Positions 4,104 to 43,591 of a stretch of DNA of 64,000 bases are shown here, one piece after another. Source of the DNA: an uncultured Clostridium sp. (GTDB taxonomy: Bacteria; Bacillota; Clostridia; TANB77; CAG-508). Numbering within the stretch: the stretch's first letter is position 1; every line of letters starts with the position of its first letter. Both the position numbers and the translations under genes were made by a program. Under the pieces are notes generated by a model that saw only the letters and a list, made by a program, of their open reading frames with translations, did not search any database and was not told the origin of the DNA. Location: the NCBI GenBank assembly GCA_948436975.1, contig CAOJJB010000001.1, positions 14,005 through 78,004 of the forward strand, given 5' to 3'.

Positions 4104-5741
4104 TTAAAATGGTAGCTTTGGACTATCTGTTAGTTTTACTACTATTATTCCATTAATAATTTTTACTGATGTTTTATCTGGAAAACGTTTCATTTGTTTA
4201 TATTCTTCTCCTGTAACAATTTTATAATAAATATCATTTGGACATGGTACTACATCAATACCATAGAATATTTTTATAAATTTAACCCATGTTCCAATAC
4301 ATCCATTATATGAATCATGAAAGGTTGGATTTGTAACAATAGACCCTACTGTATATGTATATAATGATGAAGTTCTAGGATAGTTATAATTACCTATAAT
4401 TCCACCAAACAATATCGGATATTCCTCATGATAACCATCTGTATTTTCTATTCTATCCATTATTCTCATTGTTGTTGAATACGCTTGATTATAAGTTAAC
4501 TTTAATGCTGCATAAGAAGTATTATCTGCAATATAATAAGTTCCTATTATTCCTATACATGATACTATTGCTAACCATTTAACAATTGGCATCTTATTTT
4601 TCAGATTTTCAAATATAGCCAAAGAAAATGGTATTATTAAAACCATCTGAACTGTAGTAAGTGCATACATACTGTTTTCCACCACTAAAATATCAATTAT
4701 ATTTAAACATATTGGTAAAGCTAGTATAAATATAATAGCAAGAATAATTTTTGTTATTCTTATTTTAAAATTTTTATCTTTTATAGCCATAATAGAAACA
4801 ATTGAAGACAAAGTAAACATTATAAAAAAAATACTATACATTATTTCTCTTCTAAAATTCGTATTATGTACAATTGAATCTCCTAAAAAGAATATTATAA
4901 AATCTTTATATGTTTGCATTAATGTAGTTTTTAAACCTACTAATATTCCAAATATAGAAATATTTTCTGCCCCTTTATAATTAGCAAATTCTAAATTTAA
5001 TACGTTTAATACCACTTTAGTAGTAATATAATATAAAATTCCTCCACAAATTATAACTATAATTGTTTTTAAAATGTCTATAACAATTTCTTTAATTGTT
5101 TTTTGGTTTCTTATCAAATCTAATACACTTATCATAGCACATAATCCAATACTTACACCTATATAGCTTTGATAAATACTTAATGAAAACATAAAGCATA
5201 TAATAGAAAATATAAAACCTAATTTTTTATAATTAAATTTATATAATAACCAAATAACCAATATTGAAATTAGAAAGTTAAAACAATATGCAAAAGATGT
5301 ATATATATATAACAAAGTTACAGTAAGTGTTGGAGTTACTACCAATATTAAAGAAGTTAAAACAATAGAAATTTTACTTTTAATATTAAATAAATCTATT
5401 ATAAAAACAGCTGCTATTGACATTACTAAAATACATGATATCGTTGAAACTGTTGGTATTGCTATAAAATGATTTAATCTTTCTATTAAAGCAATTCCCC
5501 ATCTTCCAAGTGTACTTTCCCATGCACCTGGTCTGAAATATTCCATAGAATTCCATAATCCATCTTGACTCATTATTGTTTCTGTTATCATTGTTATATG
5601 TGTTATTATGCCTGCTATAAGAGCCACTAAAAAGGCTAATTGTTTTCTACTGTCAAACCATTTCATAAATTTGTTCAACGCTTCTTCTGGTGTAAAAATT
5701 ATTACTTTTTTATTTTCTTCTTCCATTAGTTTATTCCCCAA
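4104..5741 (-). CDS. Polytopic membrane protein, possibly GtrII/glycosyltransferase-C-like
   Basis: 545 aa with at least 10 hydrophobic segments followed by a soluble C-terminal ~130 aa; overall architecture resembles membrane glycosyl (GtrII-type) transferases. The functional call is weak. Confidence 0.4.
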   Translation of the reverse strand: MGNKLMEEENKKVIIFTPEEALNKFMKWFDSRKQLAFLVALIAGIITHITMITETIMSQDGLWNSMEYFRPGAWESTLGRWGIALIERLNHFIAIPTVSTISCILVMSIAAVFIIDLFNIKSKISIVLTSLILVVTPTLTVTLLYIYTSFAYCFNFLISILVIWLLYKFNYKKLGFIFSIICFMFSLSIYQSYIGVSIGLCAMISVLDLIRNQKTIKEIVIDILKTIIVIICGGILYYITTKVVLNVLNLEFANYKGAENISIFGILVGLKTTLMQTYKDFIIFFLGDSIVHNTNFRREIMYSIFFIMFTLSSIVSIMAIKDKNFKIRITKIILAIIFILALPICLNIIDILVVENSMYALTTVQMVLIIPFSLAIFENLKNKMPIVKWLAIVSCIGIIGTYYIADNTSYAALKLTYNQAYSTTMRIMDRIENTDGYHEEYPILFGGIIGNYNYPRTSSLYTYTVGSIVTNPTFHDSYNGCIGTWVKFIKIFYGIDVVPCPNDIYYKIVTGEEYKQMKRFPDKTSVKIINGIIVVKLTDSPKLPF

Positions 5742-5838
5742 TATTTATTTAATTAATATTATAAAACCAAGAAAGCTTAATGTCAATGACAGTTCATTAA
5801 TAACATAAAAAATAAGGTAATGTAAATTACCTTATTTT

Positions 5839-11465: not shown

Positions 11466-11696
11466 ACCTCCATATATTCAAATCTTTGTTATTTTATCAT
11501 TACAAAATTTGATGGTCAATTTAAATCGTATTCTCTTTTTCGACAACAATATTTATAAATAATTAATTAATAATTTTTTGAATATTTTTTTATTTTTTGC
11601 AAATACTTACAAATATATAATAAAAGTGGAATTATTTTTAATTTTTTCTATTACATACTTTTAATGTAATATGATATTTTTAAAGGAGGATTTTTA

Positions 11697-12311
11697 ATGA
11701 TTAAAAAAATAAAATACTTTATTATCTTACTTATATTATTATCTGCTTTTCTTTTTCTTACAATATCATCTTATGCAAATACTATTTCAAAAGACCTATC
11801 AAATAATTTTTTTAGACTTCATATACTAGCTAATAGTGATAGCAATGAAGATCAAAATTTAAAATTGAAAGTTAGAGATAATATAATAGAATATATGAAT
11901 ACTATTTCTTATGAAGGACTATCAAAAGAAGAAGCAATACATTTAACTTATCAGCATCTTAATGAATTTCAAAAAATAGCCGAAGAAACTATATATAATG
12001 AAGGTTACAATTACCCTGTAACTTTAGAAGTTGGAAACTTTTATTTTCCAACTAAAATATATGGAAATATCTCACTTCCTGCTGGATATTATGATGCTTT
12101 AAAAATACAAATTGGTGAAGCACAAGGCCAAAATTGGTGGTGTTCTCTTTTTCCACCATTATGTTTTGTTGACATATCTTCTGGAGTAATTGATGAAGAA
12201 ACAGAACAAGAATTAAAAGATAATCTAACTGAAGAAGAATTTTCAATAATTACAAATAATACTGATACAGTAAAATTTAAATTCAAACTTATTGAAGTAT
12301 TTTCTGAATAA
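11697..12311 (+). CDS. spoIIR: Stage II sporulation protein R
   Basis: Signal/TM N-terminus, FFRLHILANSDSNEDQNLKLKVRD and QNWWCSLFPPLCF motifs typical of SpoIIR; SD AAAGGAGG upstream. Confidence 0.88.
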   Translation: MIKKIKYFIILLILLSAFLFLTISSYANTISKDLSNNFFRLHILANSDSNEDQNLKLKVRDNIIEYMNTISYEGLSKEEAIHLTYQHLNEFQKIAEETIYNEGYNYPVTLEVGNFYFPTKIYGNISLPAGYYDALKIQIGEAQGQNWWCSLFPPLCFVDISSGVIDEETEQELKDNLTEEEFSIITNNTDTVKFKFKLIEVFSE

Positions 12312-12410: not shown

Positions 12411-13676
12411 TTGGAAAAATTAGTTATCACTGGAAAAACTCCTCTAAAAGGTGAAGTAGTAATAAGTGGTGCAAAAAATGCAGCTGTTGCAATTATACCA
12501 GCTACTTTACTAATAAATGGAACTTGTACAATAGAAAATTTGCCAAATATAAGTGATGTAAGATTATATTGTGATATATTAAAAGAAATTGGTGCCAAAA
12601 TAACTTGGAATTCTGAACATGAAATAACTATTGACACACAAAACATAGATGCAAAAAAAATACCTGTAGAAATAACTAGAAAATTTAGAGCATCTTATTA
12701 TTTATTAGGAGCATTACTTGGAAGATCAAAATATGCACAAGTTGGTATTCCTGGTGGATGTAATTTAGGTGCTAGACCAATAGATCAACATATAAAAAGT
12801 TTCGAAGCTTTAGGAGCTACAGTTGATGTTTCAAATGGAAATATAACAGCAAAAGCTAAAAAATTAAAAGGAACATCTGTATACATGGATGTAGTTTCAG
12901 TAGGAGCCACAATTAATGCTATGTTGGCTGCTGTTTTAGCAGAAGGTACCACTGTTATAGATAATGCTGCAAAAGAACCTCATATAGTTGATGTTGCCAA
13001 CTTCTTAAATACAATGGGAGCAGATATTAGAGGTGCTGGAACTGATATAATAAAAGTAAATGGTGTAAAAGAATTAAAAGGAAATGCTACATATTTAGTA
13101 GTCCCTGATCAAATAGAAGCTGGTACTTTTATGCTTGCTGCAATTGCTTCTAAAGGAGATATAATTATAAAAAATTGTATTACAAAACATTTAGAATCAA
13201 TAATAGCAAAAGTAGTAGAAATTGGTGGAAATGTAGATGCTAATGGAGATCATTTAAGAGTTTGGTATTCAAAAAGAACTCACAAAGCAACTATAAAAAC
13301 CTTACCATATCCTGGTTTTCCAACCGATTTGCAGCCTCAAATTGGCGTTGTTCTTGCTGTTTCAGAAGGAACAAGTATAATAAACGAAAGTATTTGGGAA
13401 TCTAGATTTCAATATACAGCTGAACTAAATAAAATGGGTGCTAAAATTACAGCACAAGGAAAAAGTGCTGTTTTTGAAGGTGTAAACGAATTAGTAGCAG
13501 CACCAGTATATGCAACAGATTTAAGAGCTGGTGCAGCACTTATAATAGCTGGAATAATGGCAAAAGGAAAAACAGAAATATATAATTTAAATTATATAGA
13601 TAGAGGTTATGAAAACATTGAAGACAAGTTTAGACAATTAGGAGCTAAAATCGAAAGAGTAGTAGAAGAAGAATAA
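12411..13676 (+). CDS. murA: UDP-N-acetylglucosamine 1-carboxyvinyltransferase
   Basis: EKLVITGKTPLKGEVVISGAKNAA..., RPIDQHI and catalytic-loop region typical of MurA. Start moved to in-frame TTG 12411, which is preceded by GGGGGT SD and matches family N-termini; the track ATG 12372 adds 13 non-conserved residues. Confidence 0.9.
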   Translation: MEKLVITGKTPLKGEVVISGAKNAAVAIIPATLLINGTCTIENLPNISDVRLYCDILKEIGAKITWNSEHEITIDTQNIDAKKIPVEITRKFRASYYLLGALLGRSKYAQVGIPGGCNLGARPIDQHIKSFEALGATVDVSNGNITAKAKKLKGTSVYMDVVSVGATINAMLAAVLAEGTTVIDNAAKEPHIVDVANFLNTMGADIRGAGTDIIKVNGVKELKGNATYLVVPDQIEAGTFMLAAIASKGDIIIKNCITKHLESIIAKVVEIGGNVDANGDHLRVWYSKRTHKATIKTLPYPGFPTDLQPQIGVVLAVSEGTSIINESIWESRFQYTAELNKMGAKITAQGKSAVFEGVNELVAAPVYATDLRAGAALIIAGIMAKGKTEIYNLNYIDRGYENIEDKFRQLGAKIERVVEEE

Positions 13677-13693
13677 GGGGCTAAGAATAAAAT

Positions 13694-14482
13694 ATGTTAA
13701 AATTTTGTAGCTTATATAGTGGAAGTTCTGGTAATTGTTTATTTGTAAGCTCAAATAATACAAAAGTTTTAATTGACTGTGGAACCAGTTGTAAAAAAAT
13801 TTGTGAAGGATTAGCATCAATCGATTCATCAATCGAAGACATTGATGCTATTTTAGTTACACACGAACATATAGATCATATACAAAGTATTGGAACAGTA
13901 TCAAAAAAATTTAATATACCAGTTTATGCAAACTCAGAAACATGGAATGCAATGAAAAAACAAAAAGAAAAAATATCAACAAATAATATAAAATATTTTA
14001 ATAATGATGAAGATTTTTTATTAAATGATTTAACTATACATCCTTTTAGTATACCACATGATGCTATTAATCCTTGTGGTTTTAATATACATAATGGAAA
14101 AAGAAAATTAAGTATTGCAACTGACATAGGTCATATGGATAATAAAATATTTAATAAACTAGAAAATAGTTCTTTCATATTATTAGAAGCTAATTATGAT
14201 TTAGAAATATTAAAAGTGTCAAAATATCCATTTCATTTAAAACAAAGAATTGCTGGACCAAATGGACATTTATCTAATGAAACAGCTGGAAAAACAATTT
14301 CTGCTTTAATGAAAAAAGATTTGAAACAAGTTGTTTTAGGACATCTTAGTAAAGAAAATAATTTTCCTGAGCTTGCATATCAAACAGTTGCTGAACAACT
14401 TATTGAAAATAATGCTGATATAAATACTATTAGTTTAAGTGTTGCTTCTAGATATGAACCTGGAAAAATTATAAATATATAA
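13694..14482 (+). CDS. MBL-fold metallo-hydrolase (YycJ/WalJ-like)
   Basis: SGSSGN...VTHEHIDHI (HxHxDH) motif; 262 aa. Confidence 0.8.
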   Translation: MLKFCSLYSGSSGNCLFVSSNNTKVLIDCGTSCKKICEGLASIDSSIEDIDAILVTHEHIDHIQSIGTVSKKFNIPVYANSETWNAMKKQKEKISTNNIKYFNNDEDFLLNDLTIHPFSIPHDAINPCGFNIHNGKRKLSIATDIGHMDNKIFNKLENSSFILLEANYDLEILKVSKYPFHLKQRIAGPNGHLSNETAGKTISALMKKDLKQVVLGHLSKENNFPELAYQTVAEQLIENNADINTISLSVASRYEPGKIINI

Positions 14483-14486
14483 ATAC

Positions 14487-14512
14487 CGGAAGACGCCTGT
14501 TGGCGTCTTCCG
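14487..14512. terminator. GC-clamp hairpin, terminator of the foreign minus-strand ORF (and probably of the MBL gene)
   Basis: Perfect 11-bp stem CGGAAGACGCC / GGCGTCTTCCG with TGTT loop, 4 nt after the MBL stop. On the minus strand it is followed by TATTTATATATTT. Its composition is very unlike every other hairpin in the window. Confidence 0.75.
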
Positions 14513-14578
14513 TATTAGGTGAACTTTATTGATTTCTCGTGGTTATCTCCTAACTCTTAGACTCTGTCATTGGATCGG

Positions 14579-15247
14579 CTATACTGCTTCTTCCACTGGT
14601 TTGTTATATTTTCTCTTATATTTATCAACATCCATCCCCAGTCTTTCCGCTTTCTTTCGTAAAGCTTCTGCTTTGCCTACCTGCGAACCATATGTTCCCT
14701 TAGTTACGAAAGTACCATCTGGCTTCGCATGCACTAACTTTTTCATATGATTCTGACGATCTTTCTTAGATCTACTTGCCAGTGATTTATCGGCTTCAAT
14801 AGCCTTTTCCAGCAATCTCTTACTTACTCTCTGAGTCTGCTTCATTCTGACTTTTCTTTTTGCTTTTCGTGTTACCTGTCTTTCCCATTCGCGGTTAATT
14901 AAATCACACACTTCTTTAGTTGGTTCAAATTCCCCGATTTTGATATCCATTTGACACATAAATTCTTCGTAAGCATCATTTAATTTATCCTGCTTCTCAT
15001 CTTCCTCAGCCAGTTCCTTATTGAATTCATTTTGTAATTCCTCCATATGAATTCTTTCAGCCACTTTTTCAGCTTCAGATTTTTCCCACAACATATCCAG
15101 TTCTTTATCTGCCTCTTTAGCTTTCCATTCATACCAGTTTCTTTCCTCAATAAGAATAGCAAAAAGATCTTCACTTCTAGAAACCACCGTTATTGTTTCC
15201 TGATCCTGATAATATTCCCGAATCGATTCTTCTCTTACCTGTCTCAT
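14579..15247 (-). CDS. Hypothetical charged coiled-coil-type protein encoded on a compositionally foreign island
   Basis: 222-aa ORF, acidic N-half and K/R-rich C-half (AKRKVRMKQTQRVSKR...KYKRKYNKP). SD AAAGGTGG 8 nt upstream. Hand G+C counts: 20/60 (14581-14640) and 28/60 (14641-14700), against 12/60 for the flanking line 15361-15420. Confidence 0.7.
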   Translation of the reverse strand: MRQVREESIREYYQDQETITVVSRSEDLFAILIEERNWYEWKAKEADKELDMLWEKSEAEKVAERIHMEELQNEFNKELAEEDEKQDKLNDAYEEFMCQMDIKIGEFEPTKEVCDLINREWERQVTRKAKRKVRMKQTQRVSKRLLEKAIEADKSLASRSKKDRQNHMKKLVHAKPDGTFVTKGTYGSQVGKAEALRKKAERLGMDVDKYKRKYNKPVEEAV

Positions 15248-15295
15248 AATAAGACCACCTTTCTTTTTTTATACGGCACATTCGCCATCTCTTTT

Positions 15296-15324
15296 ATTAT
15301 ACATTGATTTACATAAAATGTCAA
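15296..15324 (-). promoter_or_regulatory. Perfect sigma-A-type consensus promoter for the island ORF
   Basis: Minus strand TTGACA (15324-15319), 17-nt spacer, TATAAT (15301-15296), 48 nt upstream of the ATG. Confidence 0.7.
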
Positions 15325-15337
15325 TTATTAAACCTAT

Positions 15338-15370
15338 AAAAAAATTGATGATTTATGAAATACCATCAAT
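15338..15370 (-). terminator. tex intrinsic terminator
   Basis: Minus strand ATTGATG-GTATTTCATAAAT-CATCAAT followed by T7, 18 nt after the tex stop. Confidence 0.65.
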
Positions 15371-15387
15371 TTTCTAATTATATAAAA

Positions 15388-17541
15388 TTACACTTTCATA
15401 CTCAAACTAACTTTTTGTTTTTCTTTATCTATTCCAATAACCTTAACTTTTACTATATCACCTACTGAAACTACTTCTGAGGGATTTCTTATAAACTTAT
15501 CTGCCATTTCAGAAATATGAACTAATCCATCATGTTTAACACCTATATCCACAAATGCTCCGAAATCTATAACGTTTCTAACTGTTCCTGTAAGTTCCAT
15601 TCCCTCTTGTAAATCATCAAACTTTAAAACATCACTTCTCAAAATTGGTTTTGGTAAGTCTTCTCTAGGATCTCTACCTGGTTTTGAAAGTTCTTCTATT
15701 ATATCTTTTAAAGTAAGAGTTCCTACATTTAACTCATTTGCTAATGTATTAATATCAACTTTAGATAACTCTCTTTTTAAGTTGTCTAATTTGCTTTTTT
15801 CATTTAAGTTTTCCACACAATATCCAATCTTTGTTAATAATTTTTCTGCTACCTCATAACTTTCTGGGTGAACTGCTGTTATCTCTATTGGATTATTTCC
15901 ATTAAATATACGAATAAATCCTGCACATTGTTTAAAAGCTGCTGGACCTAATTTTGGAACTTTTAATAAGTCCTTTCTATTCTTTAATTCTCCATTTTCA
16001 TCTCTATATTTTACTATATTTTTGGCTATTGTACCATTTATTCCTGAAACATATGAAAGTAAAGAAGGAGTAGCAGTATTTACATCAACTCCAACTGAGT
16101 TAACTGCATCTTCAACAACACCTGTTAGACTTTCCGATAATCTTTTTTGATTAACATCATGTTGATATTGTCCAACTCCTATTGCTTTAGGATCAATTTT
16201 TACAAGTTCTGATAATGGATCTTGTAATCTTCTAGCTATTGATATTGCTCCTCTTAAAGAAACATTTATATCTGGATATTCCTCAGTAGCAAGTTTTGAA
16301 GCTGAATACACAGATGCACCTGCCTCACTTACAATTGCATAATAAATTTCCTTATCAATTTCTTTTATCATATTAGACACAAAACTTTCAGACTCTCTTG
16401 AAGCTGTACCATTTCCTATTGCAATCATATTTATATTATATTTTTCAATTAAATTTTTTAATATTTTTGTTGCACCAATTACATCATTCTGAGGTTCTGT
16501 TGGATAAACAGTAACTGTATCTAAAAGTTTACCTGTTTTATCTATTACAGCTATTTTACAGCCAGTTCTATAAGCTGGATCAAATCCCATAACCGTCATT
16601 TCTTTAATTGGTGGTTGTAATAATAATTGTTTTGCATTTTTCCCAAATACTTTTATAGCTTTTTCTTCTGAACGTTCTGTCAAATCACTTCTAATCTCTC
16701 TTTCAATAGAAGGTTCTATTAATCTTTTATATGAATCTTCTATAGTTGTTGAAAGTAGTTCATTAAATTGACTTTTATAATTTATTATTATTTGTTTTTT
16801 CAAATAACCTAATATTTTATCATCAGGTTTATCAATTTTTACTTTTAAAAATTCTTCTTTTTCCCCACGATTAATAGCTAGAATTCTATGACTTGGAATT
16901 TTTAGTATTCCTTCTTTAAAATCATAATACATTTCATATGGAGATTTTTCATTTTCTTTAGTAGCTTTACTTGCAATAATTGCTTCTCTAAAACAAAATG
17001 ATTTTATTTTTTTTCTATAATCAGCATTATCTGCAATATTTTCAGCTATTATATCTAAAGCACCTTGTATTGCTCCTTCTTCATCTATCACACCTTTTTC
17101 TTCATTTATATATTCTTTTGCTATTTCATACAAGTCTTTTTTTTCTGTTTGTACATAAATAATATTTGCTAAAGGTTCTAATCCTCTTTCTTTTGCTATT
17201 GTTGCTCTTGTTCTTTTTTTTGGTTTGTATGGCCTATATATATCTTCAAGTTCTGATAAAACCATTGTACTTGTAATTTTTATAGTAAGTTCATCTGTAA
17301 GTTTTCCTTGTTCTTCTATAAGTCTTATTATTTCTTGTTTTCTAGTTTCTAAGTTTCTTAAATATGTAAGTCTATCTCCTAATTCTCTTAAAATTTCATC
17401 ACTTAAATTTCCTGTTACTTCTTTTCTATAACGAGCAATAAAAGGTATTGTATTTCCTTCATCTATAAGTCTTACTGTACTTTCAACTTGTGTTTCTCTT
17501 ATTCCAAGTTCTTCTGCAATCTTTTTAAATATTTTGTCCAT
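15388..17541 (-). CDS. tex: Tex-like transcription accessory protein (S1 RNA-binding domain)
   Basis: N-terminus IAEELGIRETQVESTVRLIDEGNTIPFIARYRKEVTG, YqgF/HhH regions and C-terminal S1 domain (GTVRNVIDFGAFVDIG...GLVHISE); 717 aa. Confidence 0.92.
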   Translation of the reverse strand: MDKIFKKIAEELGIRETQVESTVRLIDEGNTIPFIARYRKEVTGNLSDEILRELGDRLTYLRNLETRKQEIIRLIEEQGKLTDELTIKITSTMVLSELEDIYRPYKPKKRTRATIAKERGLEPLANIIYVQTEKKDLYEIAKEYINEEKGVIDEEGAIQGALDIIAENIADNADYRKKIKSFCFREAIIASKATKENEKSPYEMYYDFKEGILKIPSHRILAINRGEKEEFLKVKIDKPDDKILGYLKKQIIINYKSQFNELLSTTIEDSYKRLIEPSIEREIRSDLTERSEEKAIKVFGKNAKQLLLQPPIKEMTVMGFDPAYRTGCKIAVIDKTGKLLDTVTVYPTEPQNDVIGATKILKNLIEKYNINMIAIGNGTASRESESFVSNMIKEIDKEIYYAIVSEAGASVYSASKLATEEYPDINVSLRGAISIARRLQDPLSELVKIDPKAIGVGQYQHDVNQKRLSESLTGVVEDAVNSVGVDVNTATPSLLSYVSGINGTIAKNIVKYRDENGELKNRKDLLKVPKLGPAAFKQCAGFIRIFNGNNPIEITAVHPESYEVAEKLLTKIGYCVENLNEKSKLDNLKRELSKVDINTLANELNVGTLTLKDIIEELSKPGRDPREDLPKPILRSDVLKFDDLQEGMELTGTVRNVIDFGAFVDIGVKHDGLVHISEMADKFIRNPSEVVSVGDIVKVKVIGIDKEKQKVSLSMKV

Positions 17542-41662: not shown

Positions 41663-43591
41663 CTATATATCTAAATTTTTTACATATTTAGCGTTTTGCT
41701 CTATAAATTCTCTTCTTGGATTTACTTCATCTCCCATTAACAATGAAAATACTGAATCTGCTGATATAGCATCATCCATTGTTACTTTTACTAATGTTCT
41801 TGTTTCTGGATTCATTGTAGTTTCCCAAAGTTGTTCTGGATTCATTTCTCCTAATCCTTTATATCTTTGTATTCCTAATTGATCTCGTGATATTCCTTTT
41901 TCTTCTAATATTTTAAATTGTTTATCTAAATCTTCATCTGTATAACAATATATATCTTCCATTCCTTTTTTAGATAACTTAAATAGAGGTGGTTGTGCTA
42001 AATATACATTTCCATTTTCTATTAATGGTCTCATATATCTAAAGAAAAATGTTAATAATAATGTTCTTATATGTGCTCCATCAACATCTGCATCAGCCAT
42101 TATTATTACTTTTCCATATCTTATTTTTGTTATATCAAAATCTGGTCCTATACCTGCTCCTACTGCTAATATTACAGGATTTAATTTATCATTTCCATAT
42201 ATTTTATCAGCTCTTGCTTTTTCAACATTTAACATTTTTCCCCATAATGGAAGAATTGCTTGAAATTTTCTATCTCTTCCTTGTTTTGCACTACCTCCAG
42301 CTGAATCCCCTTCTACTATATATACTTCACATTCTTCTGCTATTTTACTACTACAATCTGCTAATTTTCCAGGAAGTGTTGATGTTTCTAATGATGTTTT
42401 TTTCCTTGCAAGTTCTCTAGCTTTTCTTGCTGCTTCTCTTGCTCTTGAAGCACTGATACATTTTTCCAATATAGATTTTGCTATATTAGGATTTTCTTCT
42501 AAAAAATTAGATAAGTGTTCATTCATCATAGATTGTACAACACCTGTAACTTCACTATTTCCTAATTTAGTTTTAGTTTGTCCTTCAAATTGAGGTTCTT
42601 TTACTTTTACTGATATAACTGCTGTTATTCCCTCTCTTATATCATCTCCTACTAAATTAGCATCTTTTTCTTTTAGTATATTTTTACTTCTAGCATAATC
42701 ATTAAATACTTTTGTTAATGATCTTTTAAAACCTTCTAAATGAGTTCCACCTTCTATTGTATTTATATTATTTACAAAAGTATAAATATTTTCTGAATAA
42801 CTTGTTGTATATTGTATAGCTATTTCTACAGGATATTCTCCATCTTTTTCTATGTATATTGGTTGAGGATGTAATTTTTCTTTATTTCTATTTAGATATT
42901 CAACAAAAGAATTTAATCCACCTTCAAAGCAAAATTGTGCTTTTCTTGGTACTTCTTCTCTTAAATCTTCTATTTCTATATTTAATCCTTTTGTTAAAAA
43001 TGCCATTTCTCTAAATCTGTTTTCTAATACTTCATATTCATAATCCAAAGTTTCAAATATTGTACTATCTGCAAAAAATCTAACTTTAGTTCCTGTTTTT
43101 TCAGAATCTCCAATTCTTTCAAGAGTTTTTACTGTTTTACCTCTTTCAAAACTCATTTGATAAATTCCACCATCTCTTTGAATTGTTACTTCTGTCCATT
43201 CTGATAAAGCATTAACTACTGATGAACCAACACCATGTAGTCCTCCTGATACTTTATAACCACTATCTCCTCCAAATTTTCCTCCAGCATGTAAAACAGT
43301 ATAAACTGTTTCTGCTGCTGATAATCCTGTTTTTGCATGTTTATCAATTGGAATACCTCTACCATCATCTTCAACACATATTATATTACCTGGTTCTATT
43401 TTTATATTTATATTTTTACAATATCCTGCTAAAGCTTCATCAACTGCATTATCTACTATTTCATAAACTAAATGATGCAATCCTCTAACAGAAACACTTC
43501 CTATATACATTCCTGGCCTTTTTCTTACAGCTTCTAATCCTTCTAATACTTGTATTTGATCTGCTTTATATTCATGTTCATACTTTTCCAT
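41663..43591 (-). CDS. gyrB: DNA gyrase subunit B
   Basis: [14 protein letters not shown], HATPase fold, [26 protein letters not shown], Toprim DADVDGAHI; 642 aa. Confidence 0.97.

Follow-up and report, generated by a model that had tools for sequence, protein, structure and literature searches.

A short G+C-rich segment in a very A+T-rich genome raises the question whether the gene it carries was captured from elsewhere or has long been resident. We followed this question for one locus of an uncultured Clostridium sp. The stretch analyzed, called the window throughout, has a length of 64,000 nucleotides (GenBank assembly GCA_948436975.1, contig CAOJJB010000001.1, positions 14,005 to 78,004 of the forward strand). 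Its positions 14483-15325 form a single-gene unit with one open reading frame (ORF) of 222 aa on the minus strand, located between tex and the gene for a metallo-β-lactamase (MBL)-fold hydrolase. A first-pass annotation, made from the sequence letters, had suggested that the unit may have been captured from a higher-G+C Firmicute, and this interpretation as a whole was partly supported. The unit was found as described; a recent foreign capture is not supported. The sequence comparisons rather point to an old resident, positionally fixed orphan gene, because it is almost confined to one clade, always has the same two housekeeping neighbours there, evolves and recombines fast and avoids A-ending codons. 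As the best explanation we favour, with a probability of roughly 0.55, a resident, clade-restricted and hypervariable orphan gene at a fixed position, in which the avoidance of A-ending codons is maintained.

The gene unit and its composition

The unit was dissected from its upstream border to its terminator, and the following features were assigned.

15338..15370, minus strand: tex terminator and upstream border of the unit, an A+T-rich hairpin and then a T-run directly after the tex stop (AAAATTGATGGT…ATCATCAATTTTTTT), read from the sequence
15296..15324, minus strand: sigma-70-type promoter TTGACA-17-TATAAT (-35 at 15319-15324, -10 at 15296-15301), 12/12 match
Within 15296..15324, minus strand: promoter spacer TTTTATGTAAAT, kept in distant relatives
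15248..15289, minus strand: putative 42-nt 5' leader, from sequence and ViennaRNA fold, with a 5'-proximal stem-loop at about 15273-15288 and a predicted transcription start
15255-15263, minus strand: Shine-Dalgarno sequence GAAAGGTGG, 7 nt ahead of the ATG
14579..15247, minus strand: coding sequence (CDS) of the 222-aa orphan protein, with acidic N-half, basic C-half and net charge 0
14630..14896, minus strand: family-conserved part of the CDS (residues 118-206) with basic helix, variable loop and SQ..KA..L.K.A.K, from three family alignments
14513..14578, minus strand: 3' untranslated region (UTR) from stop codon to terminator, read from the sequence
14487..14512, strand-neutral: perfect 11-bp G+C-rich hairpin with a 4-nt loop (CGGAAGACGCC-TGTT-GGCGTCTTCCG), terminator of the orphan gene

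The chance of finding 222 open codons at the composition of this ORF is ~4e-9. Perfect TTGACA-17-TATAAT sites occur three times in the 64 kb, where 0.09 are expected. The other two also lie on the minus strand, at 5758-5786 upstream of a 545-aa ORF (4104-5741) and at 24182-24210 upstream of a 772-aa helicase-like ORF (21831-24149). The tex terminator was not called by the terminator scan because its stem has fewer than three G-C pairs. The G+C-rich hairpin was the only terminator-like site in 13600-16000, and no second copy was found in the window even when three mismatches were allowed. Since it starts 4 nt past the stop of the convergent MBL gene, it probably serves as terminator for both genes.

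A scan of 13600-16200 for terminal repeats or a target duplication gave only short imperfect matches at chance level. No mobility gene was found in or beside the unit. Besides the orphan gene the island has no ORF that reaches 90 aa, and the neighbours of this gene are tex, the MBL hydrolase gene, murA and spoIIR. Thus the first-pass annotation correctly described a self-contained and compositionally deviant single gene with a perfect promoter, a hairpin unlike anything else in the window, and neither recombinase nor terminal repeats nor target duplication.

Positions 14483-15325 have a G+C content of 0.372, and the window averages 0.237 (SD 0.041 for sliding 843-bp windows). This corresponds to the 99.95th percentile, and the 843-bp window of highest G+C in the 64 kb (14451-15293) overlaps the island. 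The island had been said to have roughly double the local G+C. The deviation holds, but the factor was too high, as the ratio is 1.57x to the window mean and 1.3-1.5x to the neighbouring genes (0.25-0.31). The contrast sits at third codon positions, since the G+C content at these positions (GC3) is 0.314 in the orphan gene and 0.07-0.11 in tex, MBL, murA, spoIIR and the ABC-F gene. The median GC3 of 49 window ORFs is 0.099. Among the codons of the orphan gene, CAG was counted 9 times and CAA twice, CTG was used 5 times against 0 of 195 Leu codons in the neighbours, and the AAG share was 37% against 8%. The highest GC3 in the window (0.42) belongs to a 123-aa ORF at 42049-42420 on the plus strand, which runs antisense within gyrB and is a frame artefact, not a second island. 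The atypical composition of the orphan gene coincides with a presence/absence polymorphism among relatives.

A protein family in the tex-MBL spacer

A single-sequence search of 5.8 billion proteins returned only the protein's own cluster of eight members, the full-length ones being 97-100% identical. The same cluster was the only result of an exhaustive phmmer search of 1.84 billion representatives. In Pfam-A the best expectation value (E) for the window protein was 0.11, and 18 family members gave scattered chance matches with E of at least 0.0018. There was no match of the window protein in NCBIfam, PHROGs gave a best E of 0.089, PADLOC gave E of at least 0.003 in single members only, and PDB sequences gave 0.051 with the profile and nothing with a core profile. 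The first-pass annotation had proposed a mobile-element accessory protein and expected matches in integrative and conjugative elements, plasmids and phages of higher-G+C Clostridia. Neither proposal was borne out. When 50,697 phage and 72,556 plasmid records were searched with the 843 bp (blastn) and with two family proteins (tblastn), nothing was found, and a back-translated subfamily profile likewise had no match in IMG/VR. Also, no family member was found in higher-G+C organisms by profile searches, which are word-indexed and of limited sensitivity for very divergent homologues.

Relatives were obtained by position. One genome per GTDB species was scanned with the neighbouring Tex protein, which gave 80 loci. 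They belong to uncultured gut Clostridia, the animal hosts being human, mouse, rabbit, sheep, goat and deer, and several carry the label Candidatus Scatovivens. Where tex and MBL remain convergent neighbours, the spacers were counted in two classes.

Empty tex-MBL spacers: 32-432 bp, G+C 0.13-0.31, 13 species
Filled tex-MBL spacers: 556-1178 bp, G+C 0.32-0.54, 11 species

The shortest empty spacers consist of one bidirectional terminator and nothing more, so that the comparison with empty sites which the first-pass annotation had in mind was available in 13 species. Tblastn of the window protein against the filled spacers gave no match. In ten GTDB species the spacer carries an ORF of 134-248 aa on the same strand (truncated in one case) with shared motifs. 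The homologue that occupies this spot is very divergent, although Tex of these related species is 79-91% identical. The common plan starts with an acidic N-half that bears a W..Y motif and continues with a basic helix, a variable loop and the SQ..KA..L.K.A.K motif. The consensus of the basic helix is RRK..A.HK.K..RNA..A..N..KR...D..N, with R159 and D163 being invariant, and the window protein aligns across the family core. A hidden Markov model (HMM) of the family recovered the window ORF with E = 6.5e-48, the window sequence being part of the alignment behind it, and matched no other ORF of the window. By this measure the gene has no paralogue there.

Relatedness extends to the expression signals. 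A promoter of the form TTGAC[AT]/TTGATT-17-TATAAT was present in 10/10 related loci examined, and the spacer TTTTATGTAAAT is nearly identical among the window and the loci L025, L027, L033 and L050. About five of ten related leaders have a 5' hairpin. The closest relative, L018, retained the terminator loop (AACA on the coding strand), while the stem is changed.

Profile searches added 14 clusters (12, then 2 via the core profile) and 11 metagenome loci. In these added members, from JGI, ENA and Logan contigs, every readable context was the tex/MBL slot, except for the protein P0021 on L117. The family HMM was also run over ~1.2 Mb of related loci and revealed nothing beyond family members at the slot, again save P0021. 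Family context is thus tex / X / MBL / murA / spoIIR in one clade of A+T-rich gut Clostridia. We conclude that this is a previously undescribed protein family and that, one remote exception aside, it was found within a single clade, of genus level, of uncultured gut Clostridia with very A+T-rich genomes. P0021 (144 aa) is encoded at L117 297-746 on a 986-bp contig of ERZ27286937 with a GC3 of 0.26, and its core reads KRAERR..KARYKKR..SNA…KKRREEDKNN. It lies downstream of the glucose-6-phosphate isomerase gene (pgi) and not of tex, and therefore the family may extend beyond the tex-MBL slot.

Two further observations were made in the spacers. Mid-size "empty" spacers carry a conserved gene for a 35-37-aa peptide that is hydrophobic in its N-half and ends in a K/R-rich tail, as in MIKVLFLVSIFILSFFSIRKIIIKLITRKIKKKILN. 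Its spacer coordinates are 176-286 in L019, 167-277 in L077, 287-397 in L084, 84-191 in L030, 145-258 in L032 and 182-295 in L022. The gene is equipped with a promoter-like site of its own and with GGAGG as ribosome-binding site, and the peptide resembles small membrane or type-I-toxin-like peptides. In L022 it lies alongside the family gene; the window does not have it. The L024 spacer (556 bp, G+C 0.46), from a species sister to L023, has a family-type promoter and ribosome-binding site. It holds only a 64-aa ORF with few A-ending codons that the family HMM does not match, and may be a deleted or decayed remnant.

We then compared the history of the gene with that of its flanks. In a neighbour-joining tree of Tex, MBL and MurA, the four family subtypes (A-D) fall into coherent clades, and the empty sites are scattered among them. 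This congruence, together with the scattered empty sites, argues for an ancestral gene with repeated loss and not for repeated capture. It points to loss of the family gene in thirteen species.

The retained copies diverge much faster than their neighbours. Between the window and L018, Tex is 91%, MBL 90% and MurA 94% identical, but the family protein only 28%. In the pair L098 and L027, synonymous divergence (dS) is 0.013 in tex and 0.020 in MBL, whereas the family gene has 74% aa identity, a non-synonymous divergence (dN) of 0.16 and a dS of 0.52. The mismatch map of this pair has 0-2 differences per 100 bp up to ~200 bp into the CDS, then 20-36% divergence for ~520 bp up to the terminator, and zero again in MBL. 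L027 is a recombinant allele, since its 5' end is L098-like and its 3' end L101-like. In the same pair, murA (~1.7-3.0 kb downstream of the tex stop) is 4-6% diverged with a dS of 0.185 and forms a second recombination tract of normal low GC3.

Three close allele pairs from other species of the clade had dN/dS ratios of 0.19-0.31, and therefore the protein is real and under purifying selection. In the window's own species, six of 14 single-nucleotide polymorphisms (SNPs) over 12.4 kb lie within the 905-bp island (P = 3e-4). Five of the six lie in the ORF and are all non-synonymous, and the sixth is located in the 3' UTR at 14553. One allele, P0005 (a single 1875-bp ENA contig), is internally deleted between two near-repeats, KAIEA and GKAEA, and a frameshift alters its C-terminus. 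This reflects either pseudogenisation or an error of assembly. A separate patch was seen in spoIIR, where the 5' end (11690-11867) has ~40 differing positions in 180 bp compared with the otherwise 99.9% identical L004. SpoIIR of L004 is called with 138 aa versus 204 aa, which reflects a local recombination patch or a misassembly.

Codon usage and the competing explanations

Across the family, GC3 ranges from 0.31 in the window, the weakest case, to 0.91 in L050, while flanking genes have 0.07-0.15. The use of A and T at third positions is given below.

A at third position, L050 and L101: 0/227 and 0/222 codons (0.00); host genes 0.52-0.55
A at third position, L027, L033 and L098: 0.04-0.09; host genes 0.52-0.55
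T at third position, all alleles except L050: 0.18-0.31; host genes ~0.37
T at third position, L050: 0.09; host genes ~0.37

At four-fold sites of four alleles we counted 7 A, 98 T, 138 C and 72 G, and 215 of 222 Lys, Glu and Gln codons end in G. The two alleles devoid of A-ending codons are represented by GCA_949039705.1 (L101) and by contig CAPOZU010000004.1 of the MAG MGBC103331 (L050). For these three amino acids, 33-100% of codons are G-ending in the family alleles, in contrast to ~10% in host genes. Codon positions 1 and 2 have equal A contents in alleles with and without A-ending codons (0.30-0.35 and 0.41-0.49), and leaders and 3' UTRs are A-rich. Therefore, the effect acts at the level of the codon and not on the whole transcript. 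Ordered by third-position usage, the alleles grade from L050 (C.47, G.44, T.09, A 0) over L101/L027/L033, L023 and L018/L044 to the window allele (C.05, G.26, T.28, A.40). All eight clade-B alleles, which are 42-81% identical, have a GC3 of 0.56-0.91. Third-position changes that could be polarised in L027/L101 comprised 10 from G or C to A or T (S>W) and 8 in the opposite direction (W>S), compared with ~23:1 under host bias (P = 3e-7).

The lineages are equally old by the flank tree, GC3 stays high in clade B and third-position changes are near balanced. From this we conclude that a force maintains the codon bias, strong in some lineages and weak in that of the window, and these points speak against simple decay. 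The force would most likely be translational selection on a gene with a very highly expressed mRNA. The tRNA genes of the window are tRNA-Thr(UGU), tRNA-Glu(UUC), tRNA-Lys(UUU) and two tRNA-Ser, and ribosomal-protein genes are not within reach. In 34 related loci, scanned for tRNAs with C at the wobble position (C34), there is no tRNA of any kind. Antisense ORFs of 205-259 aa run through the L050, L027, L033 and L023 spacers opposite the family gene. Their length follows from the codon bias, because without A at sense third positions no antisense codon starts with T. A real antisense gene was considered and rejected, since its frame is closed in the window allele and it would only require avoiding TTA, CTA and TCA.

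A recent capture from a higher-G+C Firmicute or a mobile element, with lineages taking up related cassettes at different times and the older ones being more ameliorated, would account for several of these data. The CAG, CTG and AAG counts of the window allele look foreign, presence among species is patchy, and the series in which C3+G3 falls from 0.91 (L050) to 0.31 (window), C3 before G3, resembles stages of amelioration. The preferences of the high-G+C alleles (AAG, GAG, CAG, CTG, CGT/CGC, GGT/GGC, ACC, ATC) also resemble those of mid/high-G+C gut Clostridia. Yet the searches of phage, plasmid and viral collections and of higher-G+C organisms gave no homologue, and integrase, repeats and target duplication are missing. 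All lineages have the gene at the same site, on the same strand and behind the same promoter, with subtypes congruent with the flank tree. The near balance of third-position changes, which are not strongly S>W, and the high GC3 of all eight diverged clade-B alleles also do not fit a decaying import. In a rough model of our own, with a flank dS of ~0.3 per lineage, a neutral import with GC3 0.9 would have come down to ~0.3, but L050 and L101 have no A-ending codon. We therefore regard a capture as unlikely, and the first-pass assignment of a higher-G+C Firmicute donor was not upheld. This locus differs in the same way from an ameliorating genomic islet. It is similar in its atypical G+C and codons, single-gene size, sharp terminator borders and patchy presence, but lacks a donor, an integrase, a tRNA target, repeats and homologues on mobile elements, is congruent with the host phylogeny, and in clade B its composition is not relaxing to the host value.

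GC-biased gene conversion at a recombination hot spot, in which heteroduplexes often formed between diverged alleles would be repaired in favour of G and C and T would exceed A at third positions through transcription-linked C>T deamination on the non-template strand, appears somewhat less likely still. The locus has clear recombination tracts and mosaic alleles, and C>T is the commonest polarised third-position change. Recombining genes of bacteria have an elevated GC3, mostly owing to non-optimal codons (Lassalle et al. 2015, PMC4450053), and the orphan gene likewise exceeds its non-recombining neighbours in GC3. However, the effect seen here is strand- and base-specific, with A avoided and T kept at 0.23-0.31, and is limited to the CDS, as 5' leader and promoter are A+T-rich although they lie within the variable tract. 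Furthermore, the recombining murA tract keeps a GC3 of ~0.09. The shift from 0.09 to 0.9 is, in our reading, well beyond described bacterial effects.

A more specific reading of the translational effect is that the gene avoids A-ending codons so that its mRNA can be decoded without wobble-uridine (U34) tRNAs. An emergency or conflict factor would in this way be insulated from the loss of U34 tRNAs, which other host genes would need for more than half of their codons. The threats would be anticodon nucleases (from phage defence or competitors) or loss of the U34 modification under stress, and the window allele would represent a lineage with relaxed constraint. A literature search on the avoidance of A-ending codons and on anticodon nucleases turned up nothing applicable, and we consider this reading improbable.

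Adenine-specific mutagenesis of the sense strand, of a retroelement-like or deaminase-like type, might drive both the loss of A and the divergence of the protein. Synonymous A is indeed lost from the sense strand while T is retained, and the very fast divergence is focused on the gene, where one pair has it in the 3' two-thirds. Such a process is nevertheless highly improbable, given the undepleted A at codon positions 1 and 2 and the A-rich untranslated regions of the same transcript. The within-species SNPs, as read from the amino-acid changes, have no A-specific pattern, and the diverged tracts hold indels and match other alleles, as recombination predicts. A diversity-generating retroelement in particular would differ from this locus, where no reverse transcriptase and no template/variable repeat lie nearby and non-synonymous A is not depleted.

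Equally improbable is a structured non-coding or dual-function RNA with an incidental ORF. High G+C in an A+T-rich genome is a classic sign of such RNAs, and the mRNA folds better than shuffled sequences (z = -3.7, 20 shuffles). The excess of 22 kcal/mol, however, equals the terminator hairpin alone, so that practically none of the surplus stability comes from the rest of the mRNA. Rfam 15 gave no match at E <= 1 in 13600-16000, and at gathering score only the five tRNAs of the window and nothing in the islands of six related loci. The deviation is periodic, at third codon positions, and the reading frame stays open in every species, with conserved aa motifs, the low dN/dS and the small chance probability given above.

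Finally, an assembly chimera or contaminant, which the abrupt composition jump at both borders could suggest and which the first-pass annotation had kept in view, has a negligible probability and a chimera is excluded, since the same order of tex, ORF, MBL, murA and spoIIR was found with identical tex and MBL junctions in more than 30 independently assembled contigs (ENA, Logan and NCBI; 99.4-99.98% identical over up to 12.4 kb), and the most extreme allele, L050, recurred identically in two further metagenomes.

The protein and the resident-gene reading

The charge split that had been noted for the protein was confirmed. Residues 1-122 have a net charge of -20 and an isoelectric point of 4.4, whereas residues 123-222 have +20 and 10.6. 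No signal peptide or hydrophobic segment was found in it. AlphaFold2 predicts helices at 2-105 (predicted local confidence, pLDDT, 80-93) and 111-171, a disordered part at 172-188 and then short helices, with a mean pLDDT of 72. For the relative P0010, the conserved C-half (residues 90-222) was modeled with pLDDT 75-89 as helices and a small hairpin. The two mostly helical models gave no fold match. The protein would be cytoplasmic, probably a coiled coil or helical hairpin. Judging by composition and conservation only, the conserved basic helix would have a nucleic acid or else an acidic partner as its ligand, and nucleic-acid binding by the K/R-rich half, as proposed before, is plausible. 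The acidic N-helix is the fast-changing part of the protein.

In this reading, the resident gene is a monocistronic unit with a consensus promoter, a short leader, a strong ribosome-binding site, the 222-codon ORF and a shared convergent terminator. It was probably present in the ancestor of the clade and then lost repeatedly. Retained copies diverge far faster than their neighbours, at least partly because homologous recombination, anchored in the conserved flanks and the promoter, swaps segments between diverged alleles. The G+C excess is a synonymous-codon effect, in which A-ending codons are avoided and G-, C- and T-ending ones kept, and the window allele, with the weakest codon signature, looks partly relaxed. 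The acidic N-terminal helix may mask the basic surface or engage a variable partner. Because the family is hypervariable, a conflict role is suggested, for example with a phage or another mobile element. The product would be a highly expressed, charge-bipolar protein with a nucleic acid or a partner protein as ligand, possibly in such a role.

The sequence data show the gene anatomy, the family membership, the fixed position, the losses, the recombination mosaic, the purifying selection on the protein and the avoidance of A-ending codons. Several points weigh against this reading. P0021 lies next to pgi and not tex, with E = 0.085 database-wide and 1e-5 to 9e-8 in the local HMM search. A donor pool may exist in other organisms, given the word-indexed profile searches. 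The polarised substitution counts are small, and recombination between alleles can mimic point substitutions. The window allele, with A at 0.40 of its third positions, would by itself fit plain amelioration. High expression, which we infer like the cause of the bias and the function of the protein, is taken from consensus signals only. In addition, both structural models have a low global confidence (predicted template modelling score 0.27 for the window protein and 0.41 for P0010).

Among known systems, orphan genes at hypervariable recombining loci (antigen, immunity or defence genes under diversifying or frequency-dependent selection) are similar in being clade-restricted and fixed in a slot between core genes, with diverged and mosaic alleles, repeated loss and a divergence far above that of the flanks. 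The protein described here, however, is cytoplasmic, charged and mostly helical, without signal peptide, enzyme domain or PADLOC match, and its dN/dS stays below 1. An extreme synonymous-codon deviation joined to hypervariability is also unusual for such loci. Control of single genes through codon usage is exemplified by the bldA tRNA and the rare TTA codon in G+C-rich Streptomyces. There, as here, a gene is written in codons rare for its genome. Compared from sequence alone, the orphan gene has the reversed direction (G/C-ending codons in an A+T-rich genome) and every codon family is affected, and no dedicated tRNA is known for it.

The locus illustrates that a G+C island of foreign appearance can have been resident for a long time, and by composition alone it would be misclassified as horizontal transfer. 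Its codon usage is held about as far from that of the genome as possible, with no A-ending codons against 52-55%, and this across speciation, while its protein sequence and its alleles are replaced at a rate tens of times above that of the flanks. It thereby offers a compact natural test case to separate synonymous-site selection, biased conversion and amelioration in bacteria. It also defines a new, probably highly expressed family in Clostridia that are abundant but uncultured members of the gut flora of humans, mice, rabbits, ruminants and other animals. The window copy is the least extreme member, and the striking cases are found in relatives.

Elsewhere in the window, a replication-origin gene set was identified by eye from the translations at 31075-57081. 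It comprises gyrA, gyrB, recF, dnaN and dnaA on the minus strand and rnpA, yidC, mnmE, mnmG, rsmG, parA and parB on the plus strand. The island is located ~31 kb away from dnaA.

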